Shown: positions 4,410 to 15,546 of the stretch, in pieces
How positions within the stretch are numbered: the first letter of the stretch is position 1
How the letters are laid out: each line of letters opens with the position of its first letter
Origin: an uncultured Thermoplasmata archaeon
GTDB taxonomy: Archaea; Thermoplasmatota; Thermoplasmata; GCA-020350865
Direction of reading: 5' to 3'
NCBI GenBank assembly: GCA_965371185.1
Contig: CBDUXN010000071.1
Coordinates: forward strand, 1 to 15,851
DNA: 15,851 bases
Translations under genes and position numbers: made by a program
Notes under the pieces: model-generated
What the model saw: only the letters and a program-made list of their open reading frames with translations
What the model was told of the DNA's origin: nothing
The model's database searches: none

Positions 4410-4760
4410 GTGGGTAGATTAGACCTAATTATTCCTGACGATATTGAAAGAGAACTGAGAATCGAATTGATAAACAGATTTGGCGGCAAAAAAGGTGATC
4501 TGTCAAGAGCTGTTGCAGAAGCCATAGAAATGTGGATCAATAGCCCACCATTACAGGAGTCTACAATAGAGGATTTAAAAAAGACTGCCATGAATTTAGA
4601 GCTTCTTCCTAGTGAAAGAGAAAAAGCCACTAAAATGTTAAGCGGATTGGGTAAAGCCGCTCTCCCAGCACTTAATGAAATATCCAAGAATCAAGGCCTT
4701 TTACCATCACAAAGAGAGATGGCATTGGATGAGATCGATCGGATCTTAAAGGGGGTCTAG
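4410..4760 (+). CDS. Ribbon-helix-helix (CopG/Arc/MetJ-like) DNA-binding protein with a C-terminal helical extension
   Basis: The start is GTG at 4410; no in-frame ATG lies between the upstream TAA at 4383 and this codon, and GGTGA sits 4 nt upstream. The N-terminus GRLDLIIPDDIERELRIELINRFGGKKGDLSRAVAEAIEMWI fits the RHH pattern of a beta-strand with alternating hydrophobics followed by helix-turn-helix. The C-terminal ~60 aa hold an internal repeat (LLPSEREKA..., LLPSQREMA...). Confidence 0.7.
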   Translation: MGRLDLIIPDDIERELRIELINRFGGKKGDLSRAVAEAIEMWINSPPLQESTIEDLKKTAMNLELLPSEREKATKMLSGLGKAALPALNEISKNQGLLPSQREMALDEIDRILKGV

Positions 4761-4764
4761 ATAA

Positions 4765-4830
4765 AGAGCTATAAAAAAATTTACACAAAATTTAATTAGG
4801 CTGAAAGTAGTAAAGAATGGAGGTGATTGA
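4765..4830 (+). promoter_or_regulatory. Putative BRE/TATA promoter and SD-containing leader for the coiled-coil/SPFH operon
   Basis: agagCTATAAAAAAATTT (4766-4783) lies ~50 nt upstream of the ATG at 4831 and is purine-rich immediately upstream, which is BRE-like. A strong SD, GGAGGTGA, sits 5-6 nt before the ATG. Confidence 0.35.
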
Positions 4831-5361
4831 ATGTTTGAAGGGGTTGTAGCCACAAGCGCAATAAAAGGTGTTGCTTCATCGATTGCATCGATAGGTAGAA
4901 AGTATTCGGGTTATAAACTCGATAAGAGGAAAGAGGATGATCTCGCTGTGCGAAAGAAATTGATGGATGAGATAGGCAAATCTCGAGGCCATCTAATGAA
5001 TATCGTTGAGGAATCGCACAGCAAGAAGGATGACGATACAACCAACACAGCAAAAAAGACAATCGATGAGCTGGATCTTCTTTTAAACGATATCAATTTG
5101 TCAGAAACAGGGCATAAATATCCCTTTTTTTCGGAACAAAAATCGATCAATAAGAAGTCCCTGGAAGAATTAATCGAGCACGATAAAAAATTAATCAGCA
5201 GTATCGAGAATATTACCGAAGCGAGCAAGAAGCTGGAACTCGCCATAATAGATAGAGAGGATAGAGATACTGCTTGGGAGTTGAAAAGGATCAGACAGTA
5301 TGTAACAACATGTAGAGACGAATATAAGAACAGAAGGGACTGTTTAAGGAGGGTGAAATAA
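4831..5361 (+). CDS. Small charged coiled-coil protein with an N-terminal Gly/Ala/Ser-rich amphipathic segment (hypothetical)
   Basis: 176 aa. It has an ATG start with a strong SD, and its stop overlaps the next start (TAATG at 5359-5363). The N-terminus is MFEGVVATSAIKGVASSIASIG. The remainder is highly charged with heptad-like periodicity. Confidence 0.7.
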   Translation: MFEGVVATSAIKGVASSIASIGRKYSGYKLDKRKEDDLAVRKKLMDEIGKSRGHLMNIVEESHSKKDDDTTNTAKKTIDELDLLLNDINLSETGHKYPFFSEQKSINKKSLEELIEHDKKLISSIENITEASKKLELAIIDREDRDTAWELKRIRQYVTTCRDEYKNRRDCLRRVK

Positions 5362-6704
5362 TGGCAATACACTGGAAGAATTTTATGGGTAAAAATCCTG
5401 CGAATGTACTGGCTATGAAGATACCGAAAGGCCAAATCAAAGGTTTTTTCAAGAAGGAGGTAATAATCGAACCTGGGGAAGCTGCAGTTTTAATTAAGGA
5501 CGGAAGAATAGAGGAGGAACTTACACAGACTAAACTTAAGAACTTTGGGGGCGGATTCGGGGGATGGCTGGAAAGAGTTACAGGGAAAGGCGAGGACGAA
5601 TTATTATTGTTCGTAGACACAAATACAATGGATTTGGAACTCCCAGTGAAAGCAACTTCGAAAGATCACACCGAAATAAATGGCACCTGTACGGTTAGAT
5701 GCCAGGTGAATGTTAGTGAGGCCATAAAAATAATAGGAGCGATGGAAGGTAAAGATACCTTAACTAAGACTCAATTGCAGAATAGGATACAATCTGAGAT
5801 GGCCACTGCAGTTTTATCAAATAAGATCGCGAATTACTCTGCCGATGAATTTCATGGAAATATCAATATCATCAAGGATATAGAGACCTCAGCATCAATT
5901 GAAATGCGAAAAACCTTTGAGTTGTGGGGTCTGAAGCTCATCAAAATGTACACAAATTGGGATAAAAACGCGTTTGATGAATTGATGGAATATCGGAATG
6001 CATGGGAGCTTTATGATGCGAGAAAGGACGTCAAGTACGAGGGCGAAATCAAAGAGATGGAAAAAAACCATGGTATATTAAAAAAGCGTGCAGAACAGGC
6101 ACATGACCAGAGATTAGCAGGGGAATTGAATGAGATCGATGTCAAGCGTTTGTGGGAGGACTATGCCCAGGAAGTGGATAAGCGCAGAAGAATGCACGAG
6201 ATCATGCTTCAGAAAGAGGAAAAAAAGGTTCAAATTGAAATTGACGATATGGAGTTAAAGCAGGATAATAAAGAAATTGAAGAGGCCATCAAATGGAAAG
6301 ATAAGTTGCAGAGACAAAAGATGGAAAAACAGAAACAAGAGGTTGATCAGCAGATAAAAATGTATCAAGGTATGCAGCTTGAGTCAAAAAAGGTGGACGC
6401 AAGCATTGAGAAAGAAAGGATCAGAATGGAACCTGAAAAGGCAAAGTCTAACTTAGAAATTTACGAGAAAGCTCAGGAAATAGAGAAAAAACATCAATTA
6501 GAGATGGTAGAGCAGATGGCCAAACTCACTCAGGCTGCTAAACCCGATGTACCGCAAACATTGGTGCAGGGGGGAAGTCCGACACCTGTGGTTAGCGTTC
6601 AAACCCAGGAACCTCAGAAAGACGAGGTCAAATGTCCGAGCTGCGATGCTAATATTCAGGCGGGGATGACTTTCTGCCCGTCCTGTGGGACGAAAATAGA
6701 ATAG
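5361..6704 (+). CDS. SPFH (band-7/flotillin-like) domain protein with a long E/K/Q-rich coiled-coil and a C-terminal CxxC...CxxC zinc ribbon; no TM segment
   Basis: 447 aa. AGGAGGGTGA lies upstream of the ATG, which overlaps the upstream stop (translational coupling). Residues ~33-200 match the SPFH domain pattern: IIEPGEAAVLIKDGRI, then FVDTNTMDLELPVKATSKDHTEINGTCTVRCQV, then LTKTQLQNRIQSEMATAVLSNKIANYSADEF...IETSASIEMRKTFELWGLKLIKMYTNW. Compare stomatin/HflK, e.g. 'AWGIKVERVEIKDV'. A ~200-aa EKQ-rich coiled coil follows, like a flotillin. The C-terminus is CPSCDANIQAGMTFCPSCGTKIE. Confidence 0.85.
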   Translation: MAIHWKNFMGKNPANVLAMKIPKGQIKGFFKKEVIIEPGEAAVLIKDGRIEEELTQTKLKNFGGGFGGWLERVTGKGEDELLLFVDTNTMDLELPVKATSKDHTEINGTCTVRCQVNVSEAIKIIGAMEGKDTLTKTQLQNRIQSEMATAVLSNKIANYSADEFHGNINIIKDIETSASIEMRKTFELWGLKLIKMYTNWDKNAFDELMEYRNAWELYDARKDVKYEGEIKEMEKNHGILKKRAEQAHDQRLAGELNEIDVKRLWEDYAQEVDKRRRMHEIMLQKEEKKVQIEIDDMELKQDNKEIEEAIKWKDKLQRQKMEKQKQEVDQQIKMYQGMQLESKKVDASIEKERIRMEPEKAKSNLEIYEKAQEIEKKHQLEMVEQMAKLTQAAKPDVPQTLVQGGSPTPVVSVQTQEPQKDEVKCPSCDANIQAGMTFCPSCGTKIE

Positions 6705-6980
6705 AATATAGTAGAGTGATAATCTTCCTAATTTCAGTGAATAAAATTCATTAAAATTTGGTGAGAATGGAAGAGAAAGCTGGAACATGGTGAATAAGGA
6801 ATATAAATAAAGTTGGTAAGGTGGGGATAGGGCCAAAAGTAATGAAGGGGAAATATCAAAGTATATTCATTACCACTTCGTTCTAGATGAGGTGGTTTAT
6901 ATGATTCCTGCAAAAAGAAAAGCCTGATAACAATCCGCATGAGAGTTAGGGCGGCCGATAGAAAAGGTAGGATGTAAAAC

Positions 6981-9900
6981 ATGAAAGGAAAGGTAATTGT
7001 TCTTATGATTATCGTTGGAATGATAGCACTGGCGATTATTGTAGCTGGACCTTCTCAAGCAGAGAATTATGGACTGGAAGAGACCCTTATTGGGCATTCT
7101 AATTATGTACATAGTGTTTCGTGGAATCCTAACGGAACCCTATTGGCTTCTGGAGCTAACGATCATGAAATTAAAATATGGGATACAAGTACTTGGCAGA
7201 TTACACGTACACTAACAGGGCATACTGATAAAGTATTTAGCGTCTCTTGGAATCCTAATGGGACTCTATTAGCCTCTGGTTCTGCCGACCATACAATCAA
7301 GATATGGAATACGAGCACTTGGGAAAACCTACAAACACTGATAGGGCATTCGGGCGTTGTTACGAGCGTTACATGGAGTCCTGATGGAAAACAGTTGGCC
7401 TCAGGGTCCTATGACTATAAAATCAAAATCTGGAATACGAGTACTTGGCAGAACACAGACACGCTAACTGCGCATGAGTGGTATTCTTCCCTGGTGGCTT
7501 GCGTTTCATGGAGCCCTGATGTAAGCCTCATGGCCTCTGGCGGATCGGGCAATGAACTTAGGATATGGAACACGAGCACCTGGGGACTTGTCAAAACGGT
7601 AGATACGCAAACTTGGCCTGGTGGAACCGTAAGGAGCGTTTCGTGGAGCCCCGATGGAAGCCAATTAGCTTCTGTACCTCCCAACGAAAACTCCTTCAAG
7701 ATATGGAATACCACTACATGGGATAACACTCAAACAATCATAGGGCATACAGCCCAGGTGAGTAGCCTCTCATGGAACCCTAATGGGAACCGCCTGGCCT
7801 CTGGATCCGACGATAATACAATCAGGATATGGAATACGAGCACATGGACGAATTTACAGACAACGGCATATCCTACCGACGTGTTATGTATCTCGTGGAG
7901 CCCCAATGGGACTCGTCTAGCTTCCGGATTTAGAACCAACAATATTACGATATTAGGTATCGATTCCGACGCAGACGGCATAGCAGACGTAAAAGACACC
8001 TTTCCAGCCGATTCCACGCAGTGGATTGACACAGATGGTGATGGATACGGGGATAATTCGACAGGTAACAATCCCGACTTAATCCCGGATGATCCAACGC
8101 AATGGAATGATTCCGATGGAGATGGGTATGGGGATAACCAGACTGGGAATAACCCTGACATATATCCAAATGATAACACGCAATGGATTGACACAGATGG
8201 TGATGGATACGGGGATAATTCGACTGGTAATAATCCCGACTTGTTCCCAGCGGACTTTTCTCAATGGAACGACTCTGATGGAGATGGATATGGGGATAAC
8301 CAGACAGGGAACAGCCCTGATGCATTTCCAAATGATAACACGCAATGGATTGACACAGATGGCGACGGATATGGAGATAATTCGACTGGTAACAATCCTG
8401 ACTTGTTCCTAGCGGACTTAACTCAATGGAACGACTCTGATGGAGATGGATATGGGGATAACCAGACAGGGAATAGCCCTGATGCATTTCCATTCGATCG
8501 TACACAATGTAATGATACGGACGATGATGGATATGGCGATAATCCAAACGGGAACCAACCCGATCATATGCTGACGGTTTGGGGTAATTCAACCATAGAT
8601 TATTTCGGTTGTCCAGATGATGACGGTGATGGCCATTCAAACCTAACAGATTCTTTTCCTTTTGACCCGGCCGCAAGTTTCGATTCCGATGGAGATAGCT
8701 ACCCTGACGAATGGAACCTTGGAAAGACCGCTTCTGACTCCACCACTGGTCTTAATCTCGATGTCTTCCCCAATGATCCCGGCGAATGGGGAGATATCGA
8801 TGGCGATGGCATTGGTGACAACTCCGACTTTCTCCCACAACTTCATAATTTAATATTTTATGGTATCATAGTTATTATCATTATTATACTATTATTTTTA
8901 GTATCTTTGATAGGTATAAAAAATATAGTAGAATCGAGGAGCTATACCTCCAATTTCATCAGTTGGATTGCTAGTTTAAAGGTTATGAAAGATGAAAAGC
9001 CACCAAAAGAGCTATTGAGAACTCTTGAGCCACTATTTGAAAAATACAATGAACTTTCAAATGATAAATCTATTCCACAAAAAATAGACAACTTGAATGG
9101 TGAGTTTTATAAACTTGAGGATATCTCAGCAAACTATGAAGGTATGTCAAAAAGAAGGACAAAAGCAGGCAAACAGGCTAAAGGGCGTAAAAAGGAGATT
9201 GACGAGAACATCATCGCTCTCAAAGATGAAATTTGGCGTTTAAACAAGTTAAATGGTGAGAGAGAACAAAATATTTTGGAATTGGAGGATAAGGCTAGGG
9301 ATATTATCTTGGCCTGGAGAGCGGGTAAAACCATTAGCAGTGAAACCGCTATAGATAAAGCCGAGAGAAGACAAAAAGAGATCAACGCATCTGTTTCAGG
9401 AATATTGGAGCGAGTTAAAACTATCACAAAAATAGCAGACATTAAAGAGTCTGAAGAAATTACCGTTGATGTTACAAGGATAATGACTATCGTGGGTGAA
9501 AAAGTAAAGTTTGGTGTTAAAGTACAGAATGATTATGATTTTACTATCAACGACATTGACGTTCGGATTAGCACACCAAGAAAGGCTCTTGATATAATTG
9601 AACCTCATTCAAATGGTATTGCTCATATCAATAATTTATCTCCTGGTGAATCGCAAACTATTATTTTCATGTTAAAACCTTTAAGGTGCGTCGATACAAA
9701 AATCACAGGAGTTGTGGAGTTTAAAGATCCGAGAGGTGAATTGCAGGTTAAAAAAATCAGACCAAAGGCCACTGGGTTGGTATGCCCGTTTATAGAGCCC
9801 TATATAATAACTTCAGGCGATTATGTAAAAATGACAGAAACTTTGGAATCCACTCAAACCGGCTTTACCATAAAAGGCATAACAGTAGACTATATTCGGG

Positions 9901-10334
9901 ATAAATTGCTTGATCATACGGAATATATGCACGATGTAGATATCAAGAAGTTTAGTTTTGATGGTGTTGAGAGTTATATGATTTGGCAGAGTGGAAAATC
10001 CAAAGTACAAAATTTAATTTATCTATTAACAACAGTCATTACCAAGGATAAGGAATTAGACATTGTGAACACAGCTTTTTCAGCCTACTGTAGCCAAGAT
10101 CATGGTTTGCCATCATTTCTTGGTGAGGTTGTAGATACCTTAAAAGCGAATGTAAAAGCTGAAAAGGGAGCAATGGAAATCTCTAGTATCAATATAAATC
10201 AAGCGATAAATATGGTGGATTGTGTTGTGAATAGGAGTAGTATTGGAGGCGGAGGTTCTGGGAATATATGCATTGATATGAAGGATAGCATCGTTCATAA
10301 GAGCAGAATATCTGGTTCTGATGATTTAGAATAG
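6981..10334 (+). CDS. Type-I membrane protein: signal peptide, extracellular 7-blade WD40 propeller, ~9 TSP3-like Ca-binding repeats, TM helix, coiled-coil, and a conserved C-terminal cytoplasmic module shared with the 10700 gene
   Basis: 1117 aa with an ATG start. The signal peptide is MKGKVIVLMIIVGMIALAIIVAGPSQA|EN. Seven repeats of the WD40 type are present: GH...VxSVSWNPNGTLLASGSxDxTIKIWNTSTW. The canonical WD dipeptide is replaced in each blade by W-N-T-S-T-W, i.e. an N-glycosylation sequon per blade. The Ca-binding repeats have the form DTDGDGYGDNSTGNNPDLFPxDxTQWNDSDGDGYGDNQTGNSPDAFPND (DxDxDG motif). The TM helix is LIFYGIIVIIIIILLFLVSLIGI (~nt 8850-8920). This is followed by a ~190-aa coiled-coil and then the shared module at ~nt 9480-10260. 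Confidence 0.9.
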   Translation: MKGKVIVLMIIVGMIALAIIVAGPSQAENYGLEETLIGHSNYVHSVSWNPNGTLLASGANDHEIKIWDTSTWQITRTLTGHTDKVFSVSWNPNGTLLASGSADHTIKIWNTSTWENLQTLIGHSGVVTSVTWSPDGKQLASGSYDYKIKIWNTSTWQNTDTLTAHEWYSSLVACVSWSPDVSLMASGGSGNELRIWNTSTWGLVKTVDTQTWPGGTVRSVSWSPDGSQLASVPPNENSFKIWNTTTWDNTQTIIGHTAQVSSLSWNPNGNRLASGSDDNTIRIWNTSTWTNLQTTAYPTDVLCISWSPNGTRLASGFRTNNITILGIDSDADGIADVKDTFPADSTQWIDTDGDGYGDNSTGNNPDLIPDDPTQWNDSDGDGYGDNQTGNNPDIYPNDNTQWIDTDGDGYGDNSTGNNPDLFPADFSQWNDSDGDGYGDNQTGNSPDAFPNDNTQWIDTDGDGYGDNSTGNNPDLFLADLTQWNDSDGDGYGDNQTGNSPDAFPFDRTQCNDTDDDGYGDNPNGNQPDHMLTVWGNSTIDYFGCPDDDGDGHSNLTDSFPFDPAASFDSDGDSYPDEWNLGKTASDSTTGLNLDVFPNDPGEWGDIDGDGIGDNSDFLPQLHNLIFYGIIVIIIIILLFLVSLIGIKNIVESRSYTSNFISWIASLKVMKDEKPPKELLRTLEPLFEKYNELSNDKSIPQKIDNLNGEFYKLEDISANYEGMSKRRTKAGKQAKGRKKEIDENIIALKDEIWRLNKLNGEREQNILELEDKARDIILAWRAGKTISSETAIDKAERRQKEINASVSGILERVKTITKIADIKESEEITVDVTRIMTIVGEKVKFGVKVQNDYDFTINDIDVRISTPRKALDIIEPHSNGIAHINNLSPGESQTIIFMLKPLRCVDTKITGVVEFKDPRGELQVKKIRPKATGLVCPFIEPYIITSGDYVKMTETLESTQTGFTIKGITVDYIRDKLLDHTEYMHDVDIKKFSFDGVESYMIWQSGKSKVQNLIYLLTTVITKDKELDIVNTAFSAYCSQDHGLPSFLGEVVDTLKANVKAEKGAMEISSININQAINMVDCVVNRSSIGGGGSGNICIDMKDSIVHKSRISGSDDLE
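7975..8570 (+). repeat. Intragenic tandem array of ~3.5 copies of a 162-bp unit (two 81-bp half-units) encoding the TSP3-like Ca-binding repeats
   Basis: Unit-A copies start at ~8016, 8178 and 8340: cacgca(g/a)tggattgacacagatggtgatggatacggggataattcgac.ggtaa.aatcc.gactt. Unit-B copies start at ~8099, 8262 and 8424: caatggaa.ga.tc.gatggagatgg.tatggggataaccagac.ggga...ccctga. The period is exactly 162 bp, and copies 2 and 3 differ at only a few positions. The array decays from ~8500. Confidence 0.8.
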
Positions 10335-10471: not shown

Positions 10472-10572
10472 ATCACAATTCTTATAATACCCAAACCCTT
10501 TTGGGGATTAAACCCAAAATCTATTGCAGAGGAATATCACGGAAAAAGGAGGTTAACATTACCGTGGAAGAC
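10472..10572 (+). promoter_or_regulatory. Copy A of a duplicated ~100-bp promoter/5'UTR/start segment (BRE-TATA TTATAATA, palindrome CCCAAACCCTTTTGGGG, SD AAAGGAGG, decayed start accGTGgaagac)
   Basis: About 85% identical to 12389-12490 (copy B), with a perfect 39-bp core ATCACAATTCTTATAATACCCAAACCCTTTTGGGGATTA. In copy A the position homologous to the carboxyltransferase ATG is GTG, followed by 4 codons and TAG. It is probably the promoter driving the 540-aa gene, through a ~200-nt leader. Confidence 0.5.
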
Positions 10573-10699
10573 ATAATATAGGAGCTATGGGGAAAGGATT
10601 TAGTATGTAGGTTGATTGGAGAGAAGGATGAGTACACGTTTGTTTGAATTTCGGCGAGACATGAAAGAAGGTTAAAAAGTTATGTGATGGAAGGGTAAT

Positions 10700-12322
10700 A
10701 TGGAAGATCAAAAAATAACAAATCTACGGATTTTAATATTCTTCGGGATATTTTTAATGATAATAGGTTTAATAGGACCATGGTATAGTTATAGTTACGA
10801 ACCAGAGGAGTATGATAGTTATTATGATAAATATGAGTTCAACGGTTTCTACACCTATTATCACTATGAGGATTACTATGTTGTGGAGAATAGCTTTAAT
10901 GAAATAACGCCCATGTCTTTGCTAATTTCATGGCCTTTCCTTTTATGCATATACTTATCTCTTTTCTCTGTAATAACATTTAGATTTAAATTTCCTCTTT
11001 TAATTCCAATAGTCACAACTTCGGAAATTTGCTCCTATATTATTCTCTTGGCAATTATTGGTCAAATAAACAGGATCGGATGGGGGATACCTTTCCTATT
11101 TATTGGAAACGCGTTTGTTTTTATAGGATTACCAGGCTTAAGAGATAAATTAAAAGAAACAATAATGGGTTCACTTGGATCGACTTCAGAAAATACTATT
11201 TCACTGGTTCAAGTTGCAGAAAAAACCGGGTTCAGTAAGGTTGCGGTCAAAGATATGGTAAAATATCTTCTAACAAAGGACAAGATTGGAGGACATCTGG
11301 ACGGCCCTAATTTGATGTATTACAAGATATCGCCCTTTGTCTCACCTGTTTCTAGTGGACCCCAAATCCAATCTATTCCCCTTACTGAGGAGGTGGAACA
11401 AAAAGTAATGGAAGAAGATATCTCCCAACCACCAGTAACCTCTGAAGAAACAGAGAGGGAAGAAGATATCTCCACACAAATAACACCTGATGAAGAAACT
11501 ATTCCTCCAACTGAAAATATCGGCATAAAGAGCGCAATATCCTATAAAGGCGCAAAAGTGGTATATAAGGTAAAAGTTGAGAATAATTCTAAGGAACCTA
11601 TTGCAAGGATCAGGGCCAAACTCTATCTTTCTGATAATGTTTTTATCCTTGATAAGGATGAAAAAGGATTGGATCTCCTACAACCAGAAGAGTCCGCAAC
11701 GGTTACATTTAACCTTCGACCAAAAGGTGAATGTGGAAATGTGGGTATATCTGGAAAAGTGGTCTATTATGATTATAAGATAAAAGAATACAAAGAGCTG
11801 AAAATTGAGTCCAAAACAACCGCAATTATCTGCCCTATGATGAAGGTTGTTCAAACAGATGAGGATAGTTGGCGGGACAATGTCAGCAGAATGATCAAGG
11901 TTGAAGAAACAACTGAGGAAATCCCGATCGAGGCGAAAGCCCTTTTTGATGTGGTGGTAGATGTGGTCAGGGATATCAACTGCTATATGCTGGAACCTAA
12001 AATTACAGATGCCTCTGGAATGTTTCGTGGAGTGGGAAGATTCTATTGTGAGGGTGTAAAAGGTCTTAAGTATGCCATTCATGTCGAGGTTATAGGGGGT
12101 AAAACCAAATCTAAATTGATATTAAAAGCCTTTGCAGAAAATGAAGAATCACTAATAGGTTTCTATCACTGCATTTTGGATGAGATTGAAAAGAGAACCA
12201 AGATTAAGGAGTATATACATGATGCTCTAATTGTACATGGGGATTATGTAACTGGCGAGAAGATTGAGGTGAGGGATAGTGTGGTTAGTAGGTCGAGTAT
12301 AAAAGGGGACAAAAAGGATTAG
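10700..12322 (+). CDS. Membrane-tethered winged-helix protein: 4 TM helices, cytoplasmic wHTH, acidic linker, and the C-terminal module shared with the 6981 gene
   Basis: 540 aa with an ATG start. The four TM helices are ILIFFGIFLMIIGLIGPWYSY, MSLLISWPFLLCIYLSLFSVITF, LLIPIVTTSEICSYIILLAIIGQI and GWGIPFLFIGNAFVFIGLPGL. Loop 1 is acid/aromatic-rich and probably outside. Positive residues follow TM2 and TM4, placing N- and C-termini inside. The wHTH-like segment is TISLVQVAEKTGFSKVAVKDMVKYLLTKDKIGGHLDG. An E/T/P-rich acidic linker precedes the ~260-aa C-module (nt ~11535-12300), which is homologous to the C-terminus of the 1117-aa protein. Confidence 0.85.
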   Translation: MEDQKITNLRILIFFGIFLMIIGLIGPWYSYSYEPEEYDSYYDKYEFNGFYTYYHYEDYYVVENSFNEITPMSLLISWPFLLCIYLSLFSVITFRFKFPLLIPIVTTSEICSYIILLAIIGQINRIGWGIPFLFIGNAFVFIGLPGLRDKLKETIMGSLGSTSENTISLVQVAEKTGFSKVAVKDMVKYLLTKDKIGGHLDGPNLMYYKISPFVSPVSSGPQIQSIPLTEEVEQKVMEEDISQPPVTSEETEREEDISTQITPDEETIPPTENIGIKSAISYKGAKVVYKVKVENNSKEPIARIRAKLYLSDNVFILDKDEKGLDLLQPEESATVTFNLRPKGECGNVGISGKVVYYDYKIKEYKELKIESKTTAIICPMMKVVQTDEDSWRDNVSRMIKVEETTEEIPIEAKALFDVVVDVVRDINCYMLEPKITDASGMFRGVGRFYCEGVKGLKYAIHVEVIGGKTKSKLILKAFAENEESLIGFYHCILDEIEKRTKIKEYIHDALIVHGDYVTGEKIEVRDSVVSRSSIKGDKKD

Positions 12323-12347
12323 AAGTAGATGCTAAAACGATTGCTGA

Positions 12348-12381
12348 TCTTTTATTTCGTAATGGGTGTGATAGATTTTTG
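12348..12381 (+). terminator. Candidate oligo-T terminator downstream of the 540-aa gene
   Basis: T-tracts cTTTTaTTTcg (12350-12357) and aTTTTTg (12376-12380) lie 25-55 nt after the TAG at 12320-12322. Archaeal intrinsic termination uses T-runs. The signal is weak. Confidence 0.25.
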
Positions 12382-12388
12382 ACTGTTT

Positions 12389-12475
12389 ATCACAATTCTT
12401 ATAATACCCAAACCCTTTTGGGGATTAGGCCCAAAATCGGTTGCTCGATAATATCACATGAAAAGGAGGCATACC
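12389..12475 (+). promoter_or_regulatory. Copy B: promoter and 5'UTR of the carboxyltransferase operon (TATA TTATAATA 12399-12406, palindrome 12407-12423, SD AAGGAGG 12463-12469)
   Basis: The A/T box is preceded by the conserved ATCACAATTC (BRE-like position). The predicted TSS is ~12428, about 25 nt from the TATA centre. The SD lies 6 nt before the ATG at 12476. A bacterial-style TTGACT sits only 15 nt upstream of TATAAT and is not conserved in copy A, so I favour an archaeal-type promoter. Confidence 0.5.
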
Positions 12476-14026
12476 ATGACCATGGAAGACAAGATCCAGG
12501 AGCTGAGGGAAAAGAAAGAGCAGGCCAGGCTTGGCGGGGGAAAAGAACGAATAGAAAAGCAGCACTCGCAGGGCAAACTCACAGCCAGGGAGAGAGTAGA
12601 GAAGGTCCTGGACGATGGAAGCTTCATCGAGCTGGATGCCTTTGCGCTGCACGAATGCACTGATTTCGGGATGGATAAGAAGCGCATTCTCGGGGACGGG
12701 GTTGTTACAGGCTACGGTACCATCGACAGCCGCCTTGTTTACATATTCTCCCAGGATTTCACGGTTTTTGGCGGCTCTCTGGGATGGCGATTCGCCGAAA
12801 AGATTTGCAAGATCATGGACCTGGCGATGAGGAACGGTGCACCGGTCATAGGTATCAACGATTCTGGCGGCGCAAGGATCCAGGAAGGCGTTGTGAGCCT
12901 TGGAGGGTACGCGGAAATTTTCTTCAGGAATGTTATAGCCTCCGGAGTGGTGCCTCAGATCTCTGCAATAATGGGGCCGTGCGCTGGCGGTGCGGTGTAT
13001 TCACCTGCAATGACGGATTTCATACTCATGGTCAAAGAGACCAGTAACATGTTCATCACAGGGCCGGAAGTAATAAAAACTGTGACTAACGAAGAGGTTA
13101 CTTTCGAGGAGCTGGGCGGTGCCATGACCCACAACACGAAAAGCGGCGTTGCACACTTCGCATGCGAGGACGAGGAGGACTGTGCCAGGATGATAAAAAA
13201 GCTGCTCAGTTATATACCCTCCAACAACCTGGACGATCCGCCATATATGGAGACAAACGACGATCCGAACAGGAAGGACATGGAGCTGGTCAACATCGTT
13301 CCCGACGATCCAAATAAACCGTACGATATCAAGGACGTCATCCTAAGGGTTGTGGACAACAGGGATTTCTTTGAGGTGCACCCGTACTGGGCAAAGAACA
13401 TAGTGGTTGGATTTGCAAGGCTTGACGGTCATCCAGTGGGCGTGGTGGGAAACCAGCCCAATTTTCTTGCAGGCACGCTTGACATAAATTCCTCAACAAA
13501 AGGCGCCCGCTTCGTCAGGTTCTGCGATGCATTCAACATCCCCTTGCTGACCTTCGTTGACGTTCCAGGCTTTCTGCCGGGCACGGCCCAGGAGTACGGC
13601 GGCATCATAAGGAACGGCGCGAAACTGCTGTACGCTTACTGCGAGGCAACCGTTCCGAAAATCACGGTCATTACCAGGAAAGCCTACGGCGGGGCGTACG
13701 ATGTCATGTGCTCGAAGCATATCCGGGCAGATATTAATTTTGCGTGGCCCTCTTCCGAAATAGCTGTCATGGGCCCTGACGGCGCTGTGAACATCGTGTT
13801 CAGAAAGGAAATAGAGAAGGCTGAGGACAAGAAAAAGAGAAAGGAGGAACTGGTCGCTGAATACAGGAAAAAATTTGCAAATCCCTATATAGCAGCAGAG
13901 AAGGGGTATATAGACGATATCATCGAGCCGCAGGAGACGAGACCGAGGGTGATAAATGCTCTGCATACCCTATTGAACAAACGAGAACCGCGCCCTGCAA
14001 AAAAGCACGGCAACATACCGCTGTAA
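12476..14026 (+). CDS. Acyl-CoA carboxyltransferase of the propionyl-CoA carboxylase beta / methylmalonyl-CoA decarboxylase alpha / transcarboxylase 12S family
   Basis: The track ORF starts at 12458, but that ATG overlaps the SD. I prefer ATG 12476 ([13 protein letters not shown]...), 6 nt after AAGGAGG. The N-terminus is [41 protein letters not shown]. Further diagnostic segments are [42 protein letters not shown], the oxyanion and CoA-binding regions, and [25 protein letters not shown]. These are all characteristic of PccB/MmdA-type carboxyltransferases. The ORF is ~517 aa, the typical length. Confidence 0.9.
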
Positions 14027-14049: not shown

Positions 14050-15546
14050 TTGGAGAAAAAGCCGATCCAAATCACTGACACCGCCCTCAGGGACGCCCAT
14101 CAGTCCCTGCTCGCCACGAGAATGCGCACGGAGGACATGCTGCCAATTGCTGAGAAGATGGACTCCATCGGCTACTGGTCTGTGGAGATGTGGGGCGGCG
14201 CGACATTCGATTCATGCCTAAGGTTCCTAAAGCAGGACCCCTGGGAGAGAATAAGGCTTTTAAAAGAGGCCATGCCAAATACGAAGCTCCAGATGCTGCT
14301 TAGGGGGCAGAACATCGTTGGATACAAGCATTACCCTGATGATGTTGTGGAGAAGTTCGTGGAAACTGCCCACAAGAACGGCATCGATGTTTTCAGAATA
14401 TTCGATGCACTTAACGACGTCAGGAACATGAAAACCGCCTTGGAATCCACAAAGAAAGCAGGGGCGATTGCAGAATGCTGCGTGTGCTATACCATAAGTC
14501 CAGTGCACACAAACGATGTTTTTGTGAACATGGCAACGGAACTGGAAGGCATGGGCTCTGATATGCTGTGCATAAAGGATATGGCAGGCCTGCTCTCGCC
14601 AGGTCATGCCTTCGAGCTGGTCACCAAATTGAAGGAAAACATCTCGATCCCAATACACATGCACTGCCACGACACCAGCGGCATGGCTTCGGCTGCTTAT
14701 CTCAAGGGGATAGAGGCTGGAGCAGAAATCATCGACACGGCGATATCAAGCCTCTCAAAGGGCACATCACAACCTCCAACAGAGACCATGGTTGCCATGC
14801 TGGGAGACACGATCTACGATACAGGCTTAGATTTGGAATTACTCGGAGAGGTAGCAGACCATTTCACTAATGTAAGAAAAAAATATCGCATCTATGAGAG
14901 CAAGTTCACTGGAATTGATACGGATGTTCTTCAGTTTCAGATACCGGGAGGGATGATGTCCAACCTTGTGAAGCAACTGCGGGACCAAAATGCAGAGGAT
15001 AAACTGCCAGAGGTCCTTAAAGAAGTGCCCATTGTCAGGAAGGAGCTCGGTTATCCCCCTTTGGTAACGCCCTCCAGCCAGATCGTGGGAACCCAGGCGA
15101 CACTGAATGTGCTCCTCAAGGAGAGATACAAGATGATACCAAAGGAGACAAAGAATCTTATCAAGGGGCTTTACGGCAGACCCGCGGCTCCAATAGACGA
15201 GAATGTGAAGAAAATGGTGATAGGGGATGAGGAGCCAATGACATCCCGACCCGCAGATTCATTGGAGCCTGAATTGGAGCGGTTGAAAAAGGAGCTGGGC
15301 AGCGACAACATCGAGGATGTACTCAGCTACGCGCTCTTTCCACAGGTTGCAAAAAGGTTCTTTGAAGAGAGGGACGGCAAGGTCATCGACGAAGCAGAGG
15401 TTGCAGCAATAGCTGCTGCTCTCGCCTCCAGGTTCTTGAAGACCGAGGATAGAGGGATCTCTCGAAAAATCGAGCGCGGGAATGAGCCCAGCGCATGGGG
15501 CATGGCGGGGAGGCTTGAATTGATGAATGCAAGGGGAAGGATATGA
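14050..15546 (+). CDS. Pyruvate/oxaloacetate carboxyltransferase subunit (PycB / OadA / transcarboxylase 5S type), lacking a fused biotinyl domain
   Basis: The start is TTG at 14050: an in-frame TAA lies immediately upstream at 14047-14049, the next ATG is 24 codons into the conserved region, and GGGGGAG sits 7 nt upstream. The N-terminus is IQITDTALRDAHQSLLATRMRTEDML. Further segments are GYWSVEMWGGATFD, the HMGL-like TIM-barrel motifs (HMHCHDTSGMA) and a conserved C-terminal region. 498 aa. The stop overlaps the next ATG (ATGA at 15543-15546). Confidence 0.9.
   Translation: MEKKPIQITDTALRDAHQSLLATRMRTEDMLPIAEKMDSIGYWSVEMWGGATFDSCLRFLKQDPWERIRLLKEAMPNTKLQMLLRGQNIVGYKHYPDDVVEKFVETAHKNGIDVFRIFDALNDVRNMKTALESTKKAGAIAECCVCYTISPVHTNDVFVNMATELEGMGSDMLCIKDMAGLLSPGHAFELVTKLKENISIPIHMHCHDTSGMASAAYLKGIEAGAEIIDTAISSLSKGTSQPPTETMVAMLGDTIYDTGLDLELLGEVADHFTNVRKKYRIYESKFTGIDTDVLQFQIPGGMMSNLVKQLRDQNAEDKLPEVLKEVPIVRKELGYPPLVTPSSQIVGTQATLNVLLKERYKMIPKETKNLIKGLYGRPAAPIDENVKKMVIGDEEPMTSRPADSLEPELERLKKELGSDNIEDVLSYALFPQVAKRFFEERDGKVIDEAEVAAIAAALASRFLKTEDRGISRKIERGNEPSAWGMAGRLELMNARGRI

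Follow-up and report, generated by a model that had tools for sequence, protein, structure and literature searches.

The question raised by this locus is why the start region of a carboxyltransferase (CT) gene should occur twice, once before the gene itself and once before a gene for a 540-aa membrane protein. The stretch of DNA analysed (the window) is an entire contig of 15,851 bp from an uncultured Thermoplasmata archaeon (CBDUXN010000071.1), and the repeat counts given below refer to it. We consider it fairly probable that illegitimate, microhomology-mediated recombination gave rise to a second copy of ~115 bp of the CT locus, and that the upstream copy (copy A), whose start codon is dead, now serves as the probable promoter of the 540-aa gene. 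Rearrangement scars of this kind are ordinary and already known, and the arrangement does not represent a new class of element or mechanism.

A first-pass annotation of this DNA had described a ~100-bp block duplicated as direct repeats with a perfect 39-bp core, and had proposed a precise alignment of the two blocks as a check. This alignment was carried out with MAFFT, together with the repeat families D9 and D12, and it established both the repeat and its limits. Positions 10472–10596 aligned with 12389–12514 with one 1-nt indel near the Shine-Dalgarno (SD) sequence. The CT-derived homology stops at ~10586, and the alignable stretch 10586–10596 reflects similarity to a second sequence, a gene stump described below; the CT-derived repeat is ~115 bp long, with copy A at 10472–10586 and the downstream copy (copy B) at 12389–12504. 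The core (10472–10510 and 12389–12427) was identical at 39 of 39 positions, as had been claimed. In the following 76 nt, 20 differences including indels were counted (~26% divergence), and the identity fell sharply from 100% to 74% at 10510/12427 (0/39 versus 20/76 differences, Fisher p = 1.4e-4). The stretch ATCACAATTCTTATAATACCCAAACCCTTTTGGGGATTA belongs to the duplicated block. A 27-nt block pattern was found twice in the window, against 0.00 occurrences expected from shuffles, and no third copy was present in the window even when 3 mismatches were allowed. The TATA-like box TTATAATA (10482–10489), a dyad (the palindrome of the first-pass annotation), the SD sequence AAAGGAGG (10545–10552 in copy A and 12462–12469 in copy B) and the first codons of CT were all confirmed to lie within the repeat.

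The relationship of the two copies was examined against the CT promoters of related loci, namely L010–13, L016 (a metagenome match) and L017/18, with L014/15 as loci of divergent upstream region. Copies A and B matched at 39/39 positions of the core, whereas either copy matched the orthologs at 31/39. In the 5' untranslated region (UTR), the identity between A and B was 69%, compared with 27–60% to the orthologs; the 29-nt coding part was uninformative in this respect. Because, over core and UTR, each copy has its closest relative in the other, they are best read from the alignment as sister copies that arose by a lineage-specific duplication. The earlier argument for a true duplication, as opposed to a convergent regulatory motif, was thereby upheld, since the homology runs through the UTR into ~10 codons and, in core and UTR, no ortholog is as close to either copy as the other copy is. 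The comparison with related loci lacking the 540-aa gene, also suggested earlier, showed the block to be present once and always directly upstream of CT. This was the case in L010–13, L016 and L017/18, the CT proteins of which were 86–88% identical and in none of which a 540-aa gene lay between the promoter and CT. The locus therefore has the features of a local segmental duplication: homology that reaches the UTR and the coding region, copies that are mutually closest, and relatives with a single copy. Because the same promoter precedes CT once in the relatives, copy B is the native, conserved CT promoter, leader and start.

The promoter part of the block is strongly conserved. In the relatives just named, a 17-mer comprising the transcription factor B recognition element (BRE) and the TATA box, the dyad, GGAGGCAT and ATGACCGTGGAAGA precede CT, and the shared order is ATCACAATTCTTATAAT, CCAAAAACCCTTTGGGG, AAAAGGAGGCAT and ATGACCGTGGAAGAG. 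The 17-nt ATCACAATTCTTATAAT was located at 10472–10488 and 12389–12405 in the window, at 5916–5932 in L010, at 4217–4233 in L016 and at 1631–1647 in L017. It lies ~70 nt upstream of the ATG and shows no change across 4 lineages, though the CT genes are only 76–78% identical at the DNA level. The presence of a BRE and a TATA-like box, the plausible distance to the SD sequence and start, and the conservation in orthologs are those of an archaeal core promoter. A scan for sigma-70 promoters and intrinsic terminators gave background level, these models being bacterial and the host archaeal. The better conservation of the promoter compared with the CT gene hints at a dedicated regulator. The dyad is partly kept in the orthologs as CCAAA-N5-TTTGG and is degenerate in L017. 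Archaeal repressor operators can overlap the TATA box or lie just past it, as in the MDR1, Phr and TrmB-type sites. The dyad resembles these in its place between TATA box and expected start and in its conservation among orthologous promoters; unlike them, its role as an operator is putative. It may be regarded as a candidate operator common to both transcription units.

A word ATCAC(A) was observed ~63 nt downstream of ATCACAATTCTTATAAT, directly before the SD sequence, in the window and in L016. The recurrence of this word, the position of the dyad and the 17-mer conserved far better than the coding sequence could be taken as marks of a dispersed promoter/operator family that defines a regulon, copy A being an independent member. 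We hold this to be very unlikely, as the homology does not end with the promoter and continues through the UTR, SD sequence, start and ~10 CT codons, the window holds only two copies even with 3 mismatches, and the motif was found once per related locus and only at CT. A metagenome scan with the 27-nt block pattern returned a single locus, the orthologous CT promoter of L016, from a collection that is non-exhaustive, the Joint Genome Institute (JGI) contigs L010–13 not being returned; a scan of viral contigs gave no match.

With the orthologs as outgroups, the ancestral start was reconstructed as ATG ACC GTG GAA GA. In copy A, the ATG has become ATT, the bases just after the SD sequence have changed, and codon 8 has become TAG. 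All of these changes lie at positions where copy B, L010 and L016 agree, and ~7 changes private to copy A were counted on this basis. In copy B, the Val-3 codon has changed from GTG to ATG; copy A keeps GTG (10564). The idea that copy A carries a dead start was thus right, but the GTG that had been named as the decayed codon is the ancestral Val-3 codon, and the real loss is that of ATG to ATT at 10558–10560. Similarly, the start of CT had been placed in copy B at acc ATG gaa gac, but the true start is the ATG at 12476 (MTMEDK, 516 aa), six nt past GGAGG, in agreement with the database protein and with the orthologs, in which the start context is GGAGGCAT-N2-3-ATGACC. At 11–12 of the 20 differences between the copies, B has G/C and A has A/T, a bias as would be expected if copy A has decayed toward its AT-rich surroundings. 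Between 10573–10585 and 11031–11043, a perfect 13-nt inverted match was also observed (ATAATATAGGAGC and GCTCCTATATTAT). It spans exactly the four clustered changes that only copy A carries (10574, 10575, 10578 and 10579), one of which makes the TAG, and looks like a quasi-palindrome template-switch mutation or a chance match (~0.04–0.1 expected).

Directly after copy A, it was found that the DNA continues with the end of another gene. This stump matched the end of the gene for a 509-aa coiled-coil protein in a related locus, L001 (GCA_016840305.1), a cluster that also contains ESCRT-III-like (weak Snf7 match) and Vps4-like AAA genes. The match was 54/66 identical by blastn (82%, E 4e-11) and 76% over 17 aa by tblastn; in the stump, SYGER is followed, after a 1-nt deletion, by LVCRLIGEKDEYTFV and the stop codon. 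The statement that the repeats bracket exactly one gene therefore stood for the 540-aa gene and failed for the additional 65-nt stump. The CT-derived and stump-derived parts join at AGCT (10583–10586), within purine-rich sequence that the two parents share in similar form, the match being AGCT plus GRGGARAGRA, an imperfect microhomology at 10583–10598. As a side observation, the comparison of 10600–10647 with L001 4434–4481 showed that the frame is kept after the single 1-nt deletion, and the stump looks like a younger pseudogene than copy A.

Another microhomology, ATGGAAG(A), had been noted in the first-pass annotation. It was rejected as the junction word, as ATGGAAG is an ordinary purine-rich word with eight occurrences on the + strand of the window, none of them at the junction. 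The site given at 10684 is actually at 10687 and encodes M-E-G-stop, not MED.

The stump also bears on the long leader of the 540-aa gene, which had been put at ~200 nt and considered possibly regulatory. Because 10583–10647 is a 3' gene stump, the leader is best explained as gene debris and not as a regulatory RNA. A riboswitch or other structured regulatory RNA was considered and rejected: an Rfam search of the leader gave 0 matches at E<=1, and the folds were no more stable than shuffles (z = +0.96 for 10505–10715 and +1.58 for the copy B UTR). The ~190-nt leader retains the SD sequence and a possible five-codon GTG mini-ORF.

The copied segment comprises the core promoter (BRE/TATA and dyad), a ~45-nt 5'UTR with the SD sequence, the ATG and the first ~10 codons. 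Copy B remains joined to the intact CT-OadA operon as its probable working promoter and start, and copy A is fused at AGCT to the last ~21 codons of a coiled-coil gene that would formerly have stood immediately upstream of the 540-aa gene. The duplication could have come about through a template switch, through break repair, or through a deletion whose junction was filled in from a template close by. Because the core of copy A is letter-perfect beside 26% divergence, it is suggested that this promoter is still used and fires the 540-aa gene, with both the activity and the start position predicted. It would transcribe the 540-aa gene through the ~190-nt debris leader, and the gene would share promoter and operator with the CT operon. 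The proposal that the 540-aa gene captured the CT promoter thus holds in spirit, in that the gene now sits behind a copy of it.

Promoter capture by duplication has reportedly occurred in the rnk-citT module of the E. coli long-term evolution experiment. As in that module, a duplication here sets a copy of a working promoter before a different gene, a gene start is left truncated at the junction and the original unit remains intact. In contrast to rnk-citT, the copy is only ~115 bp long and lies 1.9 kb away, not in head-to-tail tandem, and the promoter is of the archaeal TATA/BRE type with putative activity.

Several observations weigh against this account. The 5' flanks of both copies showed no significant similarity to the flanks of the orthologs. 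The 540-aa gene may instead use a TATA-like TTAAAAAG at 10673–10680, ~27 nt before its ATG, which could serve as its own promoter for a leaderless transcript. A perfect core beside 26% divergence exceeds what promoter selection would easily give, the orthologs differing at 8/39 positions there, and the identity could arise without a functional copy A, through gene conversion or through a breakpoint of recombination or assembly at the core. The stump shows coding-type divergence and little neutral decay: its differences from L001 are distributed over codon positions as 2/2/7, compared with 27/12/84 for the functional appendage domain, which, should one event have produced both, is in mild tension (p ~0.04) with the 15–26% decay of copy A. 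The GC content at third codon positions (GC3) jumps exactly at copy B, so that the right arm of the contig may have come from elsewhere, through horizontal transfer or because the contig is chimeric.

The last point leads to the explanation that the UTR and the CT operon came from a GC-richer lineage and were joined at the core by horizontal transfer, recombination or an assembly chimera, the divergence of A and B past the core then being between-lineage and not post-duplication decay. GC3 was 0.31–0.46 in all seven upstream genes versus 0.62–0.64 in CT and OadA, with the break at copy B (~12389–12500), whereas in four related loci the GC3 of the operon matches that of its neighbours. The abrupt switch of identity at the end of the core, the little decay of the stump and the fact that the core is the longest stretch conserved between lineages would fit as well. 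Nevertheless, the duplication remains under this explanation, as nothing is missing from copy A and the core recurs beyond the 540-aa gene, and the ~7 private changes of copy A still need real decay time. We judge it unlikely. A different origin of the right arm would alter the dating of the duplication, not its existence.

Returning to the duplication by microhomology-mediated recombination, two histories could have led to the present order. In the first, the 540-aa gene was native, as was its upstream partner, and CT lay downstream; the promoter copy was pasted in at a deletion, which would have removed most of the partner gene, and the junction would have been filled by 115 bp copied from the CT promoter as template, 1.8 kb away. 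This history is mildly favoured, and we lean towards it only slightly, because the appendage genes are paired as in the ESCRT-type cluster of L001.

In the second, an ancestral order of WD40 gene, promoter and CT was interrupted by insertion of ~1.8 kb (stump, spacer, 540-aa gene and 66 nt) at CT codon ~10, a staggered event or a template switch duplicating the 115-bp target and rescuing CT expression, with copy A left before the insert. The geometry of repeat, insert and repeat is the classic one for such an event, microhomology is present at one junction, and the relatives have the promoter directly upstream of CT without a 540-aa gene. One relative carries a WD40 gene upstream, but on the opposite strand and non-orthologous, and the flank of copy A, ATCCCC, is faintly like the ATCCCTC of L010 and L016, but this similarity was not significant (p 0.15–0.24). 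The inserted fragment would have had to land by coincidence beside a paralogous appendage gene, recreating the pair of L001, and no enzyme is known here that would produce a 115-bp target duplication. The insertion is a possible, though doubtful, history. A flank comparison anchored at the core did not separate the two directions (p 0.15–0.76), and a local flank comparison was not significant for direction.

Under either history, template switching or microhomology-mediated joining is proposed because of the microhomology at the junction. Fork stalling and template switching and microhomology-mediated break-induced replication (FoSTeS/MMBIR), with templated insertions at deletion junctions, are established in bacteria and eukaryotes. 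The present case is like these in its imperfect microhomology (AGCT plus GRGGARAGRA) and in that a short stretch from a template ~2 kb off is joined to a truncated gene; unlike these, the second junction shows no recognisable microhomology in the present-day sequence, and the mechanism is a proposed one.

Direct repeats that flank a discrete segment could also be target-site duplications or attachment (att) sites of a mobile or integrated element carrying the 540-aa gene. This candidate was rejected and we regard it as exceedingly improbable. The only ORF of the segment has no transposase, integrase or any other Pfam match, and no terminal inverted repeats were found at the segment ends. Moreover, a 115-bp repeat is far longer than a typical target-site duplication, repeats just 74% identical outside the core do not fit att sites, and the segment begins with a truncated chromosomal gene and had no viral-contig match.

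Table 1. Features of the locus, with positions in the window.
Feature	Position	Strand	Content or basis
Upstream neighbour, 1117 aa	6981..10334	+	WD40 (Pfam), Ca-binding-type repeats, transmembrane segment, coiled coil, C-terminal appendage-like domain
Copy A	10472..10586	+	Pseudo-copy of CT promoter, 5'UTR, SD and first ~10 codons; aligned to copy B, L010, L016, L017
39-bp core of copy A	10472..10510	+	BRE/TATA block ATCACAATTCTTATAAT and dyad between TATA and expected start; 17-mer invariant in related CT promoters
Candidate operator	10490..10519	+	Dyad CCCAAA-CCCT-TTTGGG (10490–10505) and third half-site CCCAAAA (10513–10519); read from sequence
SD of copy A	10545..10552	+	AAAGGAGG retained; sequence, alignment
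Former CT start codon	10558..10560	+	Now ATT; aligns with ATG 12476–12478 and ATG of L010, L016, L017
In-frame TAG	10579..10581	+	Replaces CT codon 8 (CAG in copy B); alignment
Gene stump	10583..10647	+	Last ~21 codons and stop, homolog of L001 509-aa coiled-coil gene; blastn, tblastn
Junction microhomology	10583..10598	+	AGCTATGGGGAAAGGA; resembles CT codons 9–14 (AGCTGAGGGAAAAGAA) and donor (AGCTATGAGGAGAGAA)
52-nt spacer before 540-aa gene	10648..10699	+	No similarity to L001 spacers
540-aa gene	10700..12322	+	~4 transmembrane helices, helical region, acidic linker, C-terminal appendage-like domain aa ~275–510
66-nt spacer after 540-aa gene	12323..12388	+	T-run TTTTATTT (12350–12357), plausible archaeal terminator (predicted)
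Copy B	12389..12504	+	Putative working promoter, 5'UTR, SD (12462–12469), ATG 12476, first ~10 CT codons; joined to intact CT; orthologous promoters
CT (PF01039), 516 aa	12476..14026	+	Pfam E 1.7e-207; orthologs 86–89% identical
OadA/5S-like subunit	14050..15546	+	HMGL-like and PYC_OADA, second operon gene; Pfam; order as in relatives

The ORF of the 540-aa protein is intact, and no Pfam or NCBIfam domain was detected in it. Its helical region is winged-helix-like at low confidence. The C-terminal domain (aa 275–510, window 11520–12230) was modelled with a predicted local distance difference test score (pLDDT) >90, and Foldseek matched the predicted model to the appendages of gamma-COP, beta-COP and AP2 alpha/beta2 (E 6e-11 to 1e-6, ~240 columns). 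The TM-scores were low (0.3–0.5), probably reflecting a difference in subdomain orientation. On the model, the domain is assigned as an adaptin/COPI appendage-like ('ear') domain, with a predicted Ig-like beta-sandwich and a platform like that of the TATA-binding protein (TBP). Homologs were archaeal (Methanosarcinales), span the C-terminal half only and often carry Zn ribbons; the appendage family is large in Methanosarcinales, with highly variable N-termini (Zn ribbon, PEGA, HEAT). Among 1.84 billion representative proteins, the N-terminal 234 aa (10700–11401) found no homolog but itself. At the DNA level, homology to P0002, the closest relative, is confined to the part from the appendage domain onwards, and this suggests that recombination has shuffled the domains.

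The 1117-aa neighbour's C-terminal domain (9450–10334) was found to be paralogous to the 540-aa family (hhalign probability 96.6%, E 5e-10). The neighbour is 39% identical to the product of the first gene of L001, and the pair of appendage genes in the window mirrors the pair of gene 1 and P0002 in L001. The neighbour contains 27-aa Asp-rich tandem repeats with an 81-nt period (8001–8563), and the protein (window 9450–10334; L001 3–1556) recalls the WD40 and Ig 'adaptin-like' proteins of haloarchaeal ESCRT loci. The appendage proteins end in a short motif, DSV[VI]x[RK]SxI (window 10284–10310 and 12275–12300). In L001 it also ends a 265-aa membrane protein and occurs three times near the N-terminus of a Zn-ribbon protein, the genes with the motif being located at 1–1556, 1609–2940, 4643–6508 and 6545–7342; it may be a shared interaction or sorting peptide.

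Further upstream, a 447-aa protein (5361–6704) has a beta-rich N-domain, a ~130-residue helix and, at its C-terminus, a Zn ribbon; the SPFH/coiled-coil/Zn-ribbon component of Meth_adaptin loci has been reported to be built in this way. No SPFH match was obtained for it in Pfam, NCBIfam or PDB sequence searches, and its single-sequence model was poor. A 176-aa helical ORF of unknown family (4831–5361) overlaps the 447-aa gene by one base.

Archaeal appendage-like proteins, often with Zn ribbons, beside ESCRT-III and Vps4 have been described, as has the layout with 'two appendage proteins' in Meth_adaptin ESCRT loci (Makarova et al. 2024, PMC10936438), so the appendage domain near ESCRT genes in archaea is already known. 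Similar to these systems, two appendage proteins stand side by side in the window, the closest homolog of the 540-aa protein lies in an ESCRT-III-like/Vps4-like cluster, and homologs often carry Zn ribbons. Unlike these systems, the N-terminal half of the 540-aa protein (four transmembrane segments and a helical part) is without homolog, the gene adjoins a metabolic operon, and no ESCRT-III or Vps4 gene was found in the window, both being present only in the related locus L001.

For the CT operon, the relatives have the same gene order, with a biotin-carrier gene next after OadA, and it is therefore a transcarboxylase- or decarboxylase-type operon. Named matches of CT include Thermoplasmata or Methanomassiliicoccales, and the syntenic relatives encode Arf/Roc-type GTPases, Hef and WD40 giants. 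The upstream neighbours of the CT promoter differ in every related locus, so the region is a recurrent rearrangement point. L014/15, with the most similar CT protein (89%), have an unrelated upstream region (L014 2645–2841) and a Hef helicase neighbour. No appendage gene adjoins CT in the contexts of P0005 and P0071.

The locus can be read as a case of illegitimate recombination rewiring archaeal transcription, as a promoter copy, a dead start, a stump and a junction microhomology are found within 180 bp. For annotation, a puzzling long leader is accounted for as debris and the true start codon of CT is fixed, and the compositional break is flagged for curators of this metagenome-assembled genome (MAG) with regard to chimerism. 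A bolder version, which we think unlikely, is a natural promoter capture that became fixed: a microhomology-mediated template switch would have pasted the promoter and operator of the CT operon, which serves central carbon metabolism, before an ESCRT-linked membrane gene, rescuing its expression after the deletion of its partner and creating a mini-regulon of two units through the dyad. If copy A is active, a eukaryote-like adaptin-appendage membrane protein would be co-expressed with a carboxylase operon in this archaeon.

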